A DNA stretch of 64,000 nucleotides from Octopus vulgaris (Eukaryota), in contig OX597819.1 in the NCBI GenBank assembly GCA_951406725.2, positions 2,356,001 through 2,420,000 of the forward strand. The letters are read 5' to 3'. Positions 10,667-63,526 of the stretch are shown here, in pieces. The notes below the pieces were generated by a model, which made no database searches, was not told where the DNA came from, and was given only the letters and a program-made list of their open reading frames with translations. The position numbers and the translations under genes were made by a program. How positions within the stretch are numbered: position 1 is the stretch's first letter; each line of letters opens with the position of its first letter.

Positions 10667-10875
10667 GAGGCGCAATGGCCTAGTGGTTAGGGCAGCGGAC
10701 TCGCGGTCGCAGGATCGCGGTTTCGGTTCTCAGACCGGGCGTTGTGTGTGTTTATTGAGCGAAAACACCTAAAAGCTCTACGAGGCTCCGGCAGGGGGTG
10801 GTGATCCCTGCTGTACTCTTTCACCACAATGGCGGTGCCCCAGCATGGCCACAGCTCAAGAGCTGAAACTGGAAA
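10667..10875 (+). mobile_element. tRNA(Arg)-like SINE, internally deleted
   Basis: Head GGCGCAATGGCCTAGTGGTTAGGGCAGCGGACTCGCGG with an A box and a B-box-like TTTCGGTTCT; same family as 20320-20818 and 48175-48562. Confidence 0.8.
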
Positions 10876-13196: not shown

Positions 13197-14140
13197 CTAT
13201 TTATAGCTAGCTTTGAAGGAGGGAAGAGGTAGGTGGGAGAAGATGTGCGAGCTTGAGGGGTCGGACTGGAGTCGCCGGAAGGCTCGGAGAACGGTGCATT
13301 TGAGGAGCAGGGTGGAGGGGTGGTATGTGAGGGGGAACGGGAGATGGGCAACGGCGGGGTCAGGGGCGGGAAGAAAAAGCAGAAGCATGGTCCACGGAAC
13401 GTGCCCTGTCAAGAGCAGTGTGGATAGTCGCAAGGGGATATCCACGAAGAATGAAGCGGCGATCCATGAGTTAAGACTGAGTCTCAAAGTCATGGTTATC
13501 ACTGCAGAGCCTGCGCAGACGGAGGAATTGGAAGTAGGTGATGGTGAGCTTGGTGTAGGCAGGGTGGGAGGAGGAACAATTAAGATAGGAGTGTGAGGCG
13601 GTGTGTCGGTAATGGACGGAGGTAGTGAGAGCGGAGTGGTGTATACTGATAGAAATGTCGAGAAATACGATGGGAGAGTTAGAAATACTGCAGGAGAATT
13701 TGAGGGCAAGATGGAAGGACTGGAGAAAAGAGAGGAAGGAGACTAGTTCGCAGGAGACAGGTCACACAGATACAATCATCGATATAACGACCATATAGTT
13801 CGGGCTAAGGACCAGTGAACCATGAGAATATTTGTGCCTCAACGTAACCAACGAACAGGTTCGCATAATTGGGGTCCATTCTTGCGCCCATGCCACTCCC
13901 GAGAACTGTTGTTAAAAATCCCCTGCGAACATGAAGCAGTTAAGGGAGAGAACAAGTTCAGCCTGATCAAGAAGTATGGAGGGGTCATGTTGGGGTTTGG
14001 TCGAAGGTCCAGAAAGTGTTTCAATGCAAGACGTCCTTCGTTGTATGGGATCACTGTATTTAAACTCTTGATATCAAGAGTAAAAAGAAGTTTAAAGAGG
14101 CCACAAGGAAAGGAGAAAGAGTTAAAGAGTCAGAGAGCAT
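13197..14140 (-). mobile_element. Penelope-like retroelement reverse-transcriptase remnant
   Basis: LFTLDIKSLNTVIPYNEGRLALKHFL, G.AMGARMDPNYANLFVGYVE, VRYIDDC and YHPS motifs, all frameshifted; ends at a (TA)n tract. Confidence 0.85.
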
Positions 14141-24089: not shown

Positions 24090-27000
24090 TACTGTAACGT
24101 AATTTGTTACGTACGATAAATAAGATAACCAGACAACAGTAGAAACAACGTAATGAACTAACAATTCTCTTTGCGAACCAGCAATCAATATTCCTTGTGA
24201 ACTAACAAAACTGACACCTTCTGACTTCACTGCGAACTAACACGAACGTCACTCGATTTCGAAATCTGAACTTCGAACTCACTCTGATCGTTATTATTTA
24301 TAATTTACACGGACCAGTCTATCTCTCGCAAGGGGGAGACGTAACTCTCATCACAACATCTCTCCTTTTGAGATTTCGACTACTGAGAGAAAGTGGAATT
24401 TCTTTTATTCTTATTTGTTTTTCTCTCCAGCACCTCTCCCTCCTGTTTTTTTTTTTTAGTTGTTGTACCTTAATTGTTGCCCGACTTTTAAGGTAGTAGC
24501 GTTCATTGCACACAGATATTCAGTCTGTTTTCGTTTTCTGAAGCTGGTTCTACGGGGTTCGATATCTTTCGGTGCTGGTACTTCAACATATAGATTTCCA
24601 TTGGCATCACCTTTAGATCTTCTGTATCTCTCATCTTTAATTGGTTACGGTTTCTCTTATGTTTTTGTTAAATGAACTTTATCTCTTACTTCGAAATGTT
24701 TTGTAATATTTCTTGCATTTCCTCCAAACGTATTGTTTGTCTTTCCTTTATATGTATTTTTTCCTGGCAATAATTTATCTAAGATCGATTTTATTAACTC
24801 TGCTGGTGACTTTCTTGAATTAGTATTTGGATTTGGCGTTATTCTATAGAGTCTGAAAAATTCCGTTAGTGCCTCGTCATTAGCTAACTCGTTCCTAGCT
24901 CTTCTTAGAGCTCCTTTGAACGTGTCCATAAATCTTTCCGCCTGTTCATTTGACCTCGGGTGGTAGGGCGGGGTAAACATGTGCTTTATGGCGTGTATTT
25001 TGCAGAAATTTCTGAATTCATATCCCGTGAATTGTGTTCCGTTATCTGAAACTAACGTGTCTGGAGCACCGTACAGAACAAATAACTCGAGTAGAAAGCT
25101 GTAATGTCGGTATATTCGTTGGAGGAGGCACATTCTTGATTGCGTCTGCCCTCAACAGGTCAGTAGTCCCCCATTCTTATCTATGATTTGACGTAGGTAT
25201 TTGATTTTAGGCGAAAAAATTCACATTTCTCTTCACTGAGTATGAACCCATAATCCTTGATTTTTTTGAAAGACACACTTCACCTGATCGATATGCACAT
25301 TCCGCAATTCACTTTTGATTAACACCTCATCAAGGTATGGAATAGTAAATTGATAGTCTGCCAACATCGCATCCATCGCTTGTTGAAATATTGCAGGTCC
25401 TACCTTCAGTCCAAAACGTAGTCTATTGTATTTGTATAGAACTCTGCGCGTGTTGACTGTTAACAGCTTTGAGCAGTTTTTAATCTACTTTGATTTGTAG
25501 ATATGCGTCATACAGATCGAGTTTTGAAAATAATTTTCCTTCGTTTCTGGGGTCGGTAGTGGATAATAGTTTATTTTTAAATTTTTAAACAGTCGTTTAA
25601 ACCGGTCGAAAAATCGGCACACAACCTAATTTTATTATTTTTATCTTTTACACATCGGTCGGAGCTGCCTATCTCGCGTAATCCCCTTTTTCAATCTTTC
25701 TGATTTTTTTCAATCTGTCCAACTCATTGTTCACTTGTTTTATTGCCGCAAAAGGCACTTTCCTATTAGGCTTGAACACAGGTGTAACGTTATCATCTAA
25801 TTCAAAACACGCTTCAGTCTTTGTGCATAGACCTAATTTGTTCGAGAGTACTTGTGGAAACTTTTTAAAAATTTTCTCTTTTAAAATTATTTTTAGAGGG
25901 ACAATCATTAAGGTTTTTACAATAGAGATTTATGGAAAGGTCCCATAAATCGAATAATTCTAACCAACCGATACCAAACAGATCGGTTGCATTTTTAACG
26001 ACGAACACTTTCGTCTTGCCTGTTTTCCCTCAAAATGTGACAGTCCACATTTCGCCTATCAGATGTAATTTATCGCCCGACACGCTACAAGCAGATTTCG
26101 CTGCTTTTCTCAACATAGGTTTCCCTATTTTCTTCCATGTGTCCATATTTATTATTGAAATATCATTTCCAGTATCCAATTGAAGTTTAATATGTATTCC
26201 ATTTATTTTTATGTGTATGAATTTTCTTATTTGGGAGTCGATTTTTGTTTCTGCTGAGAGCACTCTAGGATTTTTAGCGTTTGACCTTCATAATTTTGTT
26301 CTGCAGTGTGAACTCTTGTGACCAATTCGTTTGCAACTATAACATTTTTTATTTTAAATGGATAGTCTTTTTTTAAATGCGTGTCCCCACATCTATAACA
26401 TGGATTAGGACGTGGGGTTCTTTTTTATTGTACTTTTCCGGTCGGCGTATCTGTATTTTTGAGGAATCCTTTTCTTGAATTTTTTCTAATTCGTGTTTCA
26501 GGTTTACCATCCTTTGGAATTCTCCTGCCACGGACCGTAAGGTTAGATCTTAGTTCGCTTGTTCCAATTTAGAAAGAATTCAGGGCCGAATTTCTGTATC
26601 TTCGTTTGCTGTAAGGCCTTGTATGAAAATAAGACACTTGAATATCTCAGGTTCTTTGAGTCTAAAACTTTCACACATCCTGTTGACTGTTCTTGCGTAC
26701 ATAATAAAATCATCGTTCTCTTTTTTCGTTATATTCCAACACACCATTCAAGTGTTAAATAGAGAGGTTTTATCCCCGAAGACAGTAATTCTATTGTTTC
26801 TTTAAAATAAATTTCATTGGGTTTTGCTTTTTTAGCCATATGAAATTACAGTAGCGTCCATGCTCTAACGGAGCTAATCTTCGCAATAACAATCTCGCTT
26901 TTTGTTCGTCCAACCAGGATTTGCAATCTTGATTAAAAATCTTCGCGTACCTTCTGTAGTAAGATGCAAAAGTTATACTCTCCTCTGAGTTATAACTGAA

Positions 27001-27252
27001 TTCATTAATGGAGTTCGAAACGCCGTGGGACGAAAACGAACTTATCTCATTTTTGAACTTCTCTGAATATAGTTCCAATAATTGTTGTTGTAGTTGTTGC
27101 TGTAATAGTTGCTTCTGCCACTCCTGTGGCTGCTCTTGTTGCTTTTGAAACTTCACTATGGAAGCTAATAGGTCTTCCATTTTTTAAAACAAGTATCACG
27201 AACAAATTGTTAAATAACCTACGTAAGCTTCGAAACCCTTCTCATCACAACA
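24090..27252 (-). mobile_element. Ty3/Gypsy (K02A2.6-like) LTR retrotransposon remnant
   Basis: Gag (SEESITFASYYRRY), a CCHC knuckle, protease (LQLDTGNDISII), a decayed RT and integrase (LVSDNGTQF..PPYHPRSNEQAERF). A polypurine tract AAAAGGAGAGA precedes the 3' LTR at about 24090-24358. 5-bp TSD ATGAT at 24085-89 and 27253-57. Confidence 0.9.
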
Positions 27253-29391: not shown

Positions 29392-30678
29392 CGAGGGGCG
29401 TTCAATAAGTAATGCCCCTGACCCACTTCCTATAGCAGTAGAGCAACGAAACTTGGCACAGTTATTAGTCTTTTTCTACATAGGAACCACCCAGAGTTAC
29501 GCATTTCTCCCATCGTTTGATGCAGCTCTGGAGACCGTTTTTGTAGAAGACCCCAGCTTGGTCATCCAACCACGACGTGACTTCAGAAATCAAGGCTGCA
29601 TCATCTGGGAAACGCTTTCCTTTCAAAAACAACTTCATGGCTGGGAAGAGGGGAAAATCAGAGGGTGCAAGGTCAGGAAAGTAGGGGGATGGGGGAGGAA
29701 TTCATAGCCATACGCCTGTGCTTCTGATCTGGCGACAAGCGAGTTGTGGACCGGAGCGTTGTCCTGCAGGAGGAGGATGCCTTTTCTGATCTTGCCCCGC
29801 CTCTTGATTTTGATAACTTCTCTTAATTTCCTCAAAAGTGAAGCATAATAGGCTCCTGTAATTGTGGTACCCTTTGCCAGGAAATCTGTCATCACTACTC
29901 CGTTCTGGTCCCAGAAGACTGTGAGCATGACCTTGCCAGCGGAGGGCTGCACCCTTGCCTTCTTTGAAGGAGGTGAGTCACGGTGCTTCCACTGCATTGA
30001 CTGGGCTTTGGTCCCTGGATCATAGTGATGGACCCAGGTTTCATCCTGTGTAATCAGCCTTTTGAAAAATTTTGACTCATCTTCTTGGCACATCTCCAAA
30101 TTCATCCTCGAGTACTCGACGCGTTCTTGCTTCTGGAAAGGCGTGAGCAACCTGGGAATCTATCTGGCAGACACCTTTTGCATATGCAAATGGTCATGAA
30201 TGATAGTTTCCACAGACCCGGTACTAATCTTGACCTCATGGGCTATTTGGCGAATAATTATGCGTCGATCTTCCAAAATGGCAGCCTCAACTTGACGGAC
30301 AGATGCCTCATCAATGGCAGAAGCGGGGCGACCAGATCTGGGAGCTATTTCCACAGAGTTCCGACCATGTTTGAATTCACGATGCCAGCGTTTTACAAGG
30401 TCATATGATGGGGCATCATCACCATAAGTTACTTTCATTTCATCAAAAGTCTCCCGTGGTGTGCGTCCTTTCGAATACAAAAACCGGATCACTGCTCGAC
30501 ACTCATCAGGCTCCATTTCACACTTGACTCAGTTCAAATACCTGTAAATCAGAAACCACAATTAGTTCAGAGCTGTAATTTGTCACTTACTCTATAGAGA
30601 TATAAATGATTGCACATGCAAAATTTCAGATCAAACAACTGCAAGTGGGTCAGGGGCATTACTTATTGAACGTCCCTC

Positions 30679-32790: not shown

Positions 32791-32866
32791 AGATAAGTGA
32801 CCGCGTGTGTATCGTTGGCGATCTTCTTTCTCCGTCTTCCCTTCCTTGGACCTTTCCTTTTTCTAT

Positions 32867-32901
32867 GTTTCTGACGAAGAGCTCCGCTCGAAAGGTTAAA
32901 T
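32867..32901 (+). ncRNA. Minimal hammerhead motif in a PLE terminal repeat (about 32800-32995)
   Basis: GTTT CTGACGA A GAGC TCC GCTC GAAA GGTT AAAT; stem III carries a C>G change. Confidence 0.7.
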
Positions 32902-33001
32902 CCCCCTTCTTTCCTTTCCTGAGCGTCCAATAACACTATACTTGTTCCACGTCCTCGCGTTGTTGTGTTTTCTCTTTCTTCATGTTTGGATTAACTATAT
33001 A

Positions 33002-34037: not shown

Positions 34038-34237
34038 AAACTATAAATATGTACATCGACACAAACTTGTAAAAGTACATGTATATACTTGCACAAATAC
34101 ACCCAAACATACAAACAATTACATATATATACATAAAAATGCACATTTTCCTAAACACAAAAAGACACACTATATGCATATGCATGGATGGTACAATAAA
34201 TCTTTAAAAAATCCATTCTCACGTACAATATGCCCAC

Positions 34238-34287
34238 GGGCATATGGCGTAGTGGTTAAGAGCGCGGGCTCGATTCCAAGCAGTAAT

Positions 34288-34374
<87 letters not shown>

Positions 34375-34538
34375 AAGAAGAAGAAGAAGAAGAAGAACGA
34401 AAAATACCTTAGGATTGGGAACCCAGGTTCGAAATTTCCTCGAGTCACCTGATGAAGGCTGGAGGGTATATCAGCCGAAACGTTGTGTCAACAACAAACA
34501 AGATGAGGAGAAATATCCGTCAAATATAAATAATGTAA
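34238..34538 (+). mobile_element. tRNA-headed SINE-like element carrying a hammerhead ribozyme
   Basis: A box TGGCGTAGTGG (34245-55), B-box-like GGCTCGATTCC (34267-77), an (AAT)n(AAG)n spacer, then a hammerhead at 34444-34489. Confidence 0.7.
34444..34489 (+). ncRNA. Minimal type I hammerhead ribozyme motif
   Basis: GTCAC CTGATGA A GGCTG GAGGGTATAT CAGCC GAAAC GTT GTGTC: canonical core, 5-bp stem II, palindromic stem III and a GUU site. Confidence 0.8.
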
Positions 34539-36249: not shown

Positions 36250-37157
36250 ATTTTAATTAAATTTAATTTATATTTTTGTATTGGCTTAAGTCTTTCTTTG
36301 TTTGATTTGCATAATAGTGGTTTTGTCTCTAATTTAATATAATATAATATTTTACTATAAAATTGGATTCAATCCTAAATCTGATTTTTCCCTGTAAGTT
36401 TGGATTTATTCCCTAATATGTATTATATATATATATATAAGGTAATTTAAAAAGTTCATATCTCTCATGAAACTATGAACGAATGTGCATAATATGATGA
36501 CCAATATATATTGCTTAATCGTTGACTGTTTGAAGTTGATCCTGCAATATTAGGACATAATTTAAAATCAGACAGTGTGCTAGTCTTTACCTATGATATA
36601 TGGAAGTCCATTAAGCTATCGCAGATTTCTTTAGATTTATGAATTTCTGGTAATGCATAAAAGTTGCCATATTTTTTATCCTTAATTATTTAAATACCTT
36701 CTTTTCCGTTAAATTATTTTCCCACTTGTCGCTTAACTTACCACTTTTGTTCCTTGACTATTTATCTGCATTGATTTCTAATTTCTGGAGACCGTTTCAT
36801 AGTTTTAAGACCAACTCCCCATAATGGGTTTTGTCCATTATTACAATGAACCTTACTTTATCAGTTTTTTTTTCTAATGGCTATAGAAGAATCTGTCTGC
36901 CAACATTCAAATGCTTGTTACTCTTCTTTTGATATTGTAAGATATTCTGGAATTTGTAAGTACGTTAATCTTTAATTCTTGAATTACGTTAATTTTTAGT
37001 GTCATATTTTTCTCCCATTATCTTATTGTAGTAGAATATTTAAATTATAACAGCGTTGCAGCATATATGTGTGTGAGTACGTGAGTATGTATGAGTGTGA
37101 GTGTGTATGTGTGCGCGCGCAAGTGTGCATGTACTATATTTGTGTACGTGCGTGTGC

Positions 37158-48174: not shown

Positions 48175-48562
48175 CGTCGTCGTGGCACTCCGTAAGTTTC
48201 GACGAGGAGGATTCCAGTTGATCCGATCAACGGAACAGCCTGCTCGTGAAATTAACATGCAAGTGACTGAGCACTCCACAGACACGTGTACCCTTAACGT
48301 AGTTCTCAGAGAGATTCAGCGTGACACGGTTTGTGACAAGGCTGGCCCTTTGAAATACAGGTACAACAGAAACAGGAAGAAAGAGTAAGAGAAAGTTGTG
48401 GTGAAAGAGTACAGCAGGGTTCGCCACCACGCCCTGCCAGAGCCTCGTGGAGCTTTAGGTATTTTCGCTCAATAAACACTAACAATGCCCGGTGTGGGAA
48501 TCAAAACCTCGATCCTACGACCGCGAGTCCGCTGCCCTAACCACTGGGCCATCGCGCCTCCA
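48175..48562 (-). mobile_element. tRNA(Arg)-like SINE with an 11-bp TSD
   Basis: TSD CGCTAGAACAT at 48164-74 and 48563-73, (ACG)n tail and an intact tRNA-like head. Confidence 0.92.
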
Positions 48563-62751: not shown

Positions 62752-63526
62752 TTTTATTTTTATTTTTATAGCGTGCTTTCACTTCACTACCGAGCGCAGC
62801 TCTGTGTGCCTTGGGTATGTGCTGTGATTTGTTGTGATGCTCTGATGGTTATTGTATGGAAAGTGTTCTGCGTAGGATGTGGCAGTGCCTAGTAGTGCAA
62901 TTTTCTGTATGTTATATGTGTTTGTAAGTCCTGGTGTTTTTGTTATGTATTTTTCTGAATATTTTTTTATCATGCCTAATGCACCTACTATGATAGGAAT
63001 TGTTTCTGTTTTCAGATTCCACATTCTAGTTACCTCTATTTCCAGGTCTTTGTATTTTGAGAGTTTCTCCATTTCTTTTAGAGACACGTTGTCATCTGCC
63101 GGTACTGATACATCAATTAGAAAGCATTTTTTTTCTTCATGATCTCTGACAACTATATCTGGTCTGTTGGCCTTAATTTCTCTATCTGTGTGTATCGGCA
63201 TATCCCAGAGTATGGTTGCTTTCTCGTTTTCTGTGACCTTTTCTGGTGTGTGCCTATACCATCTTTTTTCTGTTGTTATTCCATAATGTTGGCATAGCTT
63301 CCAATGTATGTAATAACCATCAGAGCAGTGTCTTGGGTATGTGCCTTGAGTATGTGCCGTGGTTTGTTGTGATGCTCTTATGGTTACTGTATTGAAAGTG
63401 TTTTGCGTAGGATGAGTGCAGTGCCCAGTAGTGCAATTTTTTGTATGTTGTATATATTTGTAAGTTCTGGTGTTTTTATTAAGTATTTGTCTGAATATTT
63501 TTTATCATACCTAATGCACCTACTAC

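Follow-up and report, generated by a model that had tools for sequence, protein, structure and literature searches.

Introduction

The element PAc of Anolis, of the Penelope/Poseidon group of Penelope-like elements (PLEs), encodes a reverse transcriptase (RT) with a C-terminal GIY-YIG domain and has a hammerhead overlapping the start of its open reading frame (ORF). It has two internal start sites for reverse transcription, an optional tail of 30-40 bp, an uncut RNA template and AT-rich targets (PMC11167929). These traits are shared by the octopus family described here, which in addition carries a 73-nt tRNA-derived head with A and B boxes; the available text of PMC11167929 describes no such head for PAc. 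In Schistosoma, the Sm-alpha repeats are non-coding and combine, like our repeat, a promoter of Pol III type with a type I hammerhead downstream of it (PMC6765202, PMC8490949), so that a Pol III SINE with a hammerhead is in itself not new. Sm-alpha is described as freed from multimers by self-cleavage and, in the accessible parts of the same two papers, has no identified partner, whereas the octopus repeat has a minimal ribozyme and ends set elsewhere, and is the pLTR of the partner itself.

Metazoan non-LTR retrozymes are short, non-coding, pLTR-related and PLE-dependent, with a type I hammerhead and, for some of them, tandem arrays (bioRxiv 10.64898/2026.07.22.740005; PMC7761336). As far as these sources are available, they are defined as tandem units cut to circular monomers, in contrast with the octopus copies, which are mostly single or inverted and have ends off the cut site. 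The tRNA head is also specific to our family, and neither "tRNA" nor "Pol III" occurs in the part of bioRxiv 10.64898/2026.07.22.740005 that was available. The TRIMp3 elements (Cassandra, Helenus, Ajax) have, like the present family, a Pol III promoter derived from a small RNA in their terminal repeat, for which a SINE insertion was proposed (PMC10886601). They are non-autonomous LTR elements from which no long sequence in common with the LTR of the partner is expected, whereas the head described here sits in a protein-coding PLE, and the word "Penelope" is absent from the available text of PMC10886601. The non-autonomous Chlamys PLEs such as MRC1 are non-coding and resemble the octopus family in sharing their 3' end with an autonomous PLE, in their inverted copies and in a tail restricted to one end; in the accessible part of this report (PMC8557442) neither a tRNA head nor Pol III is mentioned.

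We analysed a window of 64,000 nucleotides of Octopus vulgaris (contig OX597819.1, assembly GCA_951406725.2) and searched the whole genome (2.8 Gb, 227 contigs) for relatives of one of its elements. The octopus SINEs OK, OR1 and OR2, probably from the same animal group, presumably resemble this family by their tRNA-derived heads; they were reportedly described by Ohshima and Okada in 1994, and OR1 and OR2 are said to originate from tRNA-Arg. OR1 or OR2 is cited as a CORE-SINE in the passages available from PMC4824008 and PMC4758252, and was set beside our family by description only. A literature search returned neither this family nor a tRNA head in the pLTR of a coding PLE, and repeat databases and libraries may hold an entry. 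In the accessible part of the repeat annotation of PMC13282606 hammerheads are unmentioned and one supplement gave no matches to two 18-mers; its repeat library may hold the family. The fixation of a tRNA head in the pLTR of a coding PLE may be new. By its features the element is a PLE pLTR that works like a SINE, and it shows neither the LINE tail of SINEs nor the two characters examined for retrozymes.

Results and discussion

Organisation and damage of the window copy

The element is located at positions 34238-34538 of the window on the forward strand, on which all features below lie except where stated. Its motifs were found where a previous sequence-only reading had placed them, and each of two tested motifs occurred once in the window and never in 100 shuffles. 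The tRNA-derived head (34238-34288) has an A box at 34245-34255, matching the SINE promoter consensus quoted in the available part of PMC8969392, and is followed by a tract (34291-34397) of (AAT)n at 34291-34346 and (AAG)n at 34345-34397. The A box and spacer had thus been read correctly. Both B boxes of that reading, on the other hand, were lost. Alignment to the intact copy L234 showed a 22-nt deletion at about 34269/34270, by which the anticodon loop and the first part of the B box are lost, and the apparent B box "GGCTCGATTCC" (34267-34277) is the product of the deletion junction. Intact heads measure 73 nt, and in them the A box is followed 44 nt later by a proper B box. The second string resembling a B box (34426-34436), which is without the final CC, lies inside the Penelope coding frame and is probably no promoter element.

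Upstream of the head, positions 34232-34237 correspond to a 6-nt leader native to the Penelope pLTR, as the same leader precedes the head in ORF-linked copies, and the RNA would have started near 34232. The sequence-only reading had overlooked an 8-bp inverted remnant of the first bases of the head on the reverse strand (34228-34235), lying within a palindrome at 34228-34245 and representing a fold-back or a head-to-head joint.

The 3' part of the pLTR (34398-34538) is the 5' end of a Penelope ORF, into which it continues at other loci. The first 41 codons of this ORF (34415-34537) are open in the window copy, with a TTG start codon in place of the ATG of the family. Within them a minimal type I hammerhead is predicted at 34444-34489, with the motif layout of the PLE ribozyme in the available part of PMC4209133: stem I (34444-34448/34485-34489), the core CTGATGA (34449-34455) followed by one unpaired A, stem II GGCTG/CAGCC (34457-34461/34472-34476), and GAAAC-GTT with the palindromic AACGTT (34477-34484), the predicted cut falling after 34484. 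The hammerhead had been called well formed, which held for the core, stem II and GAAAC-GTT layout but not for stem I, where a T-T mismatch leaves 4 of 5 pairs, compared to 5 of 5 in the intact copy L031. The short AT-rich end noted before is present, but is really the short class of Penelope 3' ends (34527-34538), at which the window copy aligns to tail position 144 and at which reverse transcription probably started. The flanks of this copy show at most an imperfect resemblance to a TSD and were left out of the counts. Among copies the (AAT)n/(AAG)n tract differs in length, with a median gap of 42 nt between head and tail (n=68). The window copy itself is likely dead.

Identity of the head and of the ribozyme

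Rfam found neither a hammerhead nor a tRNA at the locus, even at E<=10, and ARAGORN detected no tRNA in the head. The minimum-energy fold of the window copy differed from a hammerhead, the folding z-scores of the head, the hammerhead and the 3' hairpin were all non-significant, and the head gave no cloverleaf fold. As Rfam and ARAGORN were blind to both parts, each was tested directly; with these programs and the folding giving no support, the hammerhead was recognised by the layout of its motifs, and the tRNA origin of the head by its alignment to the tRNAs of the genome.

The intact head aligned end to end with the tRNA-Arg(TCG) of the genome with a score of 59, compared to at most 39 for 300 shuffles; head and shuffles were compared with the same 30 tRNA loci, which cover few isotypes. 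A profile built from the tRNAs of the genome matched all six ORF-linked heads, with the A and B boxes at tRNA spacing. Intact copies hence exhibit the tRNA-derived head with A and B boxes that is typical of SINE2 elements, the B box being broken in the window copy. Concerning the ribozyme, the minimal layout of PLEs was given by Cervera and de la Pena (PMC4209133, available in part), and the extra base after A9, the G10.1-C11.1 pair and the palindromic stem III were all present. In stem II, 4 of 5 pairs change on both sides across nine sequences; 7 of the 9 had been picked by a script requiring the stem, which makes this covariation test circular.

Family size and arrangement of copies

First-look searches gave 3213 candidates with the tail as query and 1088 with the head. 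An exact 39-nt hammerhead sequence occurred 1218 times genome-wide and a 20-nt head pattern 2980 times, with zero occurrences of the respective controls. In a blind sample of 80 stretches of 10 kb taken at round coordinates (800 kb), 13 contained the element, which corresponds to about 45,000 loci (24,000-78,000).

Leaving out the query copies, head and tail lay on the same strand within 800 bp in 27/29 loci found with the head, 21/28 found with the tail, 20/30 found with the exact hammerhead and 4/13 blind loci. The previous proposal that head and hammerhead belong together in a large family is thereby confirmed. Among the outcomes that would refute it, it had named an accidental nesting of head and hammerhead in a microsatellite at a single locus; the sole point for such an accident is that both pieces border a microsatellite, and this co-occurrence together with the thousands of exact copies excludes it, so that we give it practically no weight. 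Divergence from the column majorities is about 5% for the ORF and 5-8% for the pLTR; short and ORF-bearing copies are of similar age (5-8%), and ORF pieces are attached in 9 of 100 loci.

A few loci carry head-to-tail arrays, namely four complete 240-bp units at L171:3834-4881, three headless units directly after a zinc-finger ORF at L172:4773-5324, and a two-unit repeat at L236. The arrays L171 and L172 are loci where a hammerhead dimer could form. We found also a repeat of about 570 bp shared by L211, L252, L045, L379, L083, L042, L034 and L046, which is inserted in the (AAT)n of several copies, is common elsewhere, and has no match to the LINE piece described below.

The repeat as pLTR of a coding Penelope-like element

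The partner was found via a broken RT fragment upstream of one head (L043). Head and tail followed about 30 bp after the ORF stop in 16/19 loci found with a piece of this ORF (query locus excluded), and letters of the head followed the ORF in 8/8 further loci found with the protein. Conversely, the tail stood directly before the ORF, and in frame with it, in 24/30 loci found with the 5' part of the ORF. The pLTR is thus present both after and before the ORF, which is the partial tandem arrangement of PLEs. In this unit the ORF stop is followed, after about 30 bp, by the tRNA-like head and the (AAT)n, and then by the ATG, the hammerhead in codons 12-24 and the rest of the ORF; the ATG, about 20 nt past the (AAT)n, opens a frame which runs through the hammerhead into the protein. 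The N-terminal peptide of the intact copy L031 matched that of a relative, P0005 (12/17 identical, E 1e-5). The following 165 residues matched P0005 at E 1e-30, and the two proteins are 52% identical in the RT.

The partner protein exhibited an RVT_1 match above the cut-off and weak TERT matches, and its relatives are 830-850 aa long. A GIY-YIG-like C-terminus was read by eye as a motif and aligned to a PLE whose domain matches PF01541; Pfam scored no GIY-YIG in the C-terminal pieces of the partner. From its motifs, and from the overlap of ORF and hammerhead as in PAc, we tentatively place the partner in the Penelope/Poseidon clade. None of 124 scored matches contained an intact ORF, the longest open frame being 569 aa, and the family thus appears extinct.

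As judged from sequence, the head, the (AAT)n and the hammerhead are the pLTR of a coding Penelope-like element of this genome and not a free SINE with a borrowed ribozyme. All five features of EN+ PLEs that were looked for were found: an adjoining RT/GIY-YIG ORF, the partial tandem, inversions, a tail at one end and a minimal hammerhead. The shared 3' end and LINE mobilisation of SINE2 elements were not observed, the 3' part being the start of the PLE ORF, and the earlier remark that no LINE tail is visible was right. The earlier hypothesis of an independent non-coding element with a borrowed hammerhead has to give way to a pLTR with the first 40-50 codons of a coding Penelope in the same genome.

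Several other candidates for the partner were rejected. Searching for GIY-YIG with Pfam led to other PLE families, including a young one of 781 aa, which share no module with the element, and neither does a Neptune-like family; the module was present in 0/30 and 0/12 loci of such families, and as one separate insertion in 20 loci. In the young family (L175:1243-4508, L176) intact ORFs of 781 aa are numerous, a further frame overlaps upstream, and the 3' region contains CCAAT/CRE-like repeats; a descriptor search found no hammerhead in this family. L003 and L008 proved to have their (AAT)n interrupted by part of an RLE-type LINE (L003:467-1450). This piece is a 3' portion with a zf-RVT match just under the cut-off, and is presumably Dong/R4-like.

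A related PLE showed how a head can be acquired. At L355:2440-2760 a tRNA-derived SINE of about 320 bp lies between the ORF stop and the hammerhead, and the relative L351 is without it, so that the first step, a SINE entering a PLE pLTR, can happen; this was the one such insertion found among those of 79 related metagenome loci that had flank. At L377, L382, L387, L388 and L397 the sequence breaks off at nearly the same point, about 390 nt into the 5' ORF query, and a tail piece follows in three of them; an additional RT start site or a subfamily with a deletion may account for this.

Insertion signature and 3' ends

A head-to-head inverted copy was present in 62/100 loci. Two classes of 3' ends were distinguished, which lie 120-155 nt inside the ORF and are separated by about 30 bp; 47/49 inverted pairs had one long and one short 3' end. 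Flank matches of 10-13 bp were observed in 20/49 pairs, compared to matches of at least 10 bp in 6/2352 mismatched pairs, and the flanks are 70% AT. Inverted copies with a 30-40 bp tail at one end only were described by Craig et al. (PMC8557442). Frangieh et al. attributed the tail to a pair of sites within the ORF at which reverse transcription begins, and reported that both DNA strands are cut and extended and that uncut RNA is the main template (PMC11167929; both papers available in part). The copies were almost certainly made by the Penelope protein, and the inversions, the long and short ends and the flank duplications bear out the earlier suggestion of Penelope machinery.

The same suggestion had included a release by self-cleavage, with which the ends disagree: 3 of 207 pieces ended near the cleavage site and 7 of 142 started there, compared to 3.1 expected. 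This 5' excess (p 0.04, for one window chosen afterwards) is among the points in favour of an independent Pol III SINE or retrozyme freed by self-cleavage, which would borrow the Penelope proteins and whose ORF-linked copies would be secondary fusions. The predominance of solo copies by about 10:1 over ORF-attached ones (9 of 100 loci with ORF) and the tandem arrays L171 and L172 would also suit this scenario. Against it, the hammerhead half is the N-terminal coding sequence of the ORF itself, conserved in the 52%-identical relative, and the head is regularly found next to the stop of the ORF. Tandem hammerhead units, the usual form of retrozymes, are rare, most of the 100 loci being single or inverted, and since the ends lie off the cleavage site the element is not a retrozyme. 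We regard the independent SINE or retrozyme as largely refuted and very improbable.

Probable start of the RNA

Among the 34 copies reaching the first base of the head, 29 stopped between -12 and +4, compared to 11% expected from the truncation rate inside the head (p ~2e-23); these copies had not been chosen by their head. The accumulation of stops at the edge of the head suggests an RNA start about 6 nt before it. In a list of the first 100 matches to the head pattern, inspected by eye and including three loci present on both strands, 22 continued into the 3' UTR, about 37 had a palindromic joint and about 41 had other stops.

These joints raise the possibility that no RNA started at the head, and that the 5' peak arose from truncated long Penelope RNAs because the palindrome at the edge of the head drew fold-back or cDNA annealing. 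The palindromic joints of the list lie exactly there, and the window copy has one too. Nevertheless, the roughly 41 other stops occur at the same place without such a joint, simple copies are joined straight to the flank in L017, L248, L252 and L079, and RT passes the stronger stem II without a comparable peak. An origin of the peak in the palindrome thus appears improbable, and an RNA beginning just before the head is retained below.

Which polymerase

In favour of Pol III are the A and B boxes at tRNA spacing and the position of the putative start, a few bases ahead of the first base of the tRNA. Runs of four T (T4) on the sense strand were scarce, with 7 in 37,670 nt of 28 copies compared to 75 expected and none of them shared, while five ORFs of other PLE families of this genome have 4-10 each. 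With a codon-aware null the scarcity gave P 0.0125 for L226 and P 0.24 for a second set of segments. On the column majorities there were 0 runs compared to 3.6 expected; given the common ancestor of the copies, it is this comparison of 0 with 3-4 that counts, so that the depletion is only modest. The 5' ORF pieces had 7 T4 runs, 3 of them T5, in 20,932 nt. The ORF of a related family without the tRNA head was also T4-free (L311, L318; two loci, read by eye, out of about 30 that were informative). We considered a Pol III terminator behind the long end and rejected it, as the ORF continues there without a T run.

A TATA-like box (TATAA) was found 28 bp before the putative start, at -34, in 11/11 scored ORF-linked copies. 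On this basis the short RNA could have been transcribed by Pol II, the tRNA head being a passenger and the short copies by-products in cis of the mRNA, with no SINE phase. A capped RNA would solve the problem of translation, and the similar age of short and ORF-bearing copies also fits. In the available parts of the literature PLE promoters are located in the pLTR (PMC6765202), and it is argued that autonomous partners must use Pol II (PMC10886601). On the other side, Pol II leaves the intact A and B boxes and the scarce T4 runs unexplained, and the TATA-like box overlaps the ORF stop codon, which may be why it is conserved. A TATA at -30 is likewise compatible with Pol III. One site differed between ORF-linked (8/21) and solo (9/81) copies (p 0.007), which are otherwise of the same sequence and of similar age; this is a hint that solo copies had sources of their own, and these are without this TATA-like box. 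Taken as a whole, this account of the copies as by-products is less likely than not.

The longer RNAs often began earlier, as 4 of the 6 tail-to-ORF copies reaching the start of the head continue upstream. Three unstranded RNA runs and one contig set, whose read source may be another species, contained the sequence and showed no sharp transcript starts or ends; the increase in read depth, about 2-3 fold over the head and as much as about 8 fold over the tail, is what copy number would produce.

For the short RNA we therefore lean slightly towards Pol III, and Pol II is a distinctly weaker possibility. It is also possible, if rather doubtful, that the whole 2.6-kb coding element was read by Pol III from the captured tRNA promoter, with T-run terminators purged from its sense strand, a SINE produced inside its own terminal repeat and an uncapped Pol III RNA serving as mRNA. 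Were this true, it would contradict the rule by which autonomous retroelements depend on Pol II or on host read-through.

Proposed origin of the copies

The explanation to which we give somewhat better than an even chance is that the window copy is a decayed solo pLTR of a coding Penelope with a tRNA-derived head, likely copied by its own RT/GIY-YIG protein from an RNA which likely began just before the head and was most likely made by Pol III. An ancestral element would have captured a tRNA(Arg)-like head, probably by insertion of a SINE, and its RNA would start about 6 nt before this head. By analogy with the system in the available part of PMC11167929, the protein would initiate cDNA synthesis at two sites within the ORF, 120-155 nt from its start. 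An RNA start at -6 would put these sites about 250-300 nt from the 5' end, so that copying from their 5'-proximal copy would give a cDNA of only 250-300 nt, which is a SINE-sized element such as the present one. If both ends of a staggered cut served as primers, this would produce the 10-13 bp duplication and head-to-head pairs in which one end is long and the other short. With their internal promoter, solo copies could in turn have given rise to new copies in the manner of SINEs, and the hammerhead, inherited from the pLTR, would be mostly uncut in the templates.

The family provides a direct sequence link between SINE-like copies and a Penelope partner, a pairing which reviews had only proposed for retrozymes. 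It also suggests a simple route to such families: once a tRNA head has entered a pLTR, reverse transcription that starts internally, close to the 5' end of the RNA, yields SINE-sized copies. Its tens of thousands of insertions document the Penelope mechanism on a large natural scale. Families of this kind may be classified as SINEs in repeat libraries, with PLE-derived DNA being undercounted as a result.

Other elements

A second minimal hammerhead lies at window positions 32820-32990 on the forward strand, with its core at 32871. It belongs to a different, pyrimidine-rich repeat family, which occurred in 12/80 blind stretches and in none of 12 Neptune-like loci. A further hammerhead family, also abundant and with a U3-A8 core variant, was seen in L077, L079, L104 and L140, with tandem copies 362 bp apart in L079. 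On the reverse strand of the window, positions 13402-13986, 36510-36662 and 62881-63500 contain remnants of two other PLEs and of an RLE-type LINE adjoining a long (ATT)n tract. Three open stretches on the same strand, 29638-30159, 24660-25151 and 26794-27183, resemble, by their motifs, pieces of a mariner transposase and of LTR-retrotransposon integrase and gag. Two further tRNA-like heads, at 48494-48550 on the reverse strand and 10675-10732 on the forward strand, probably belong to other SINE families.
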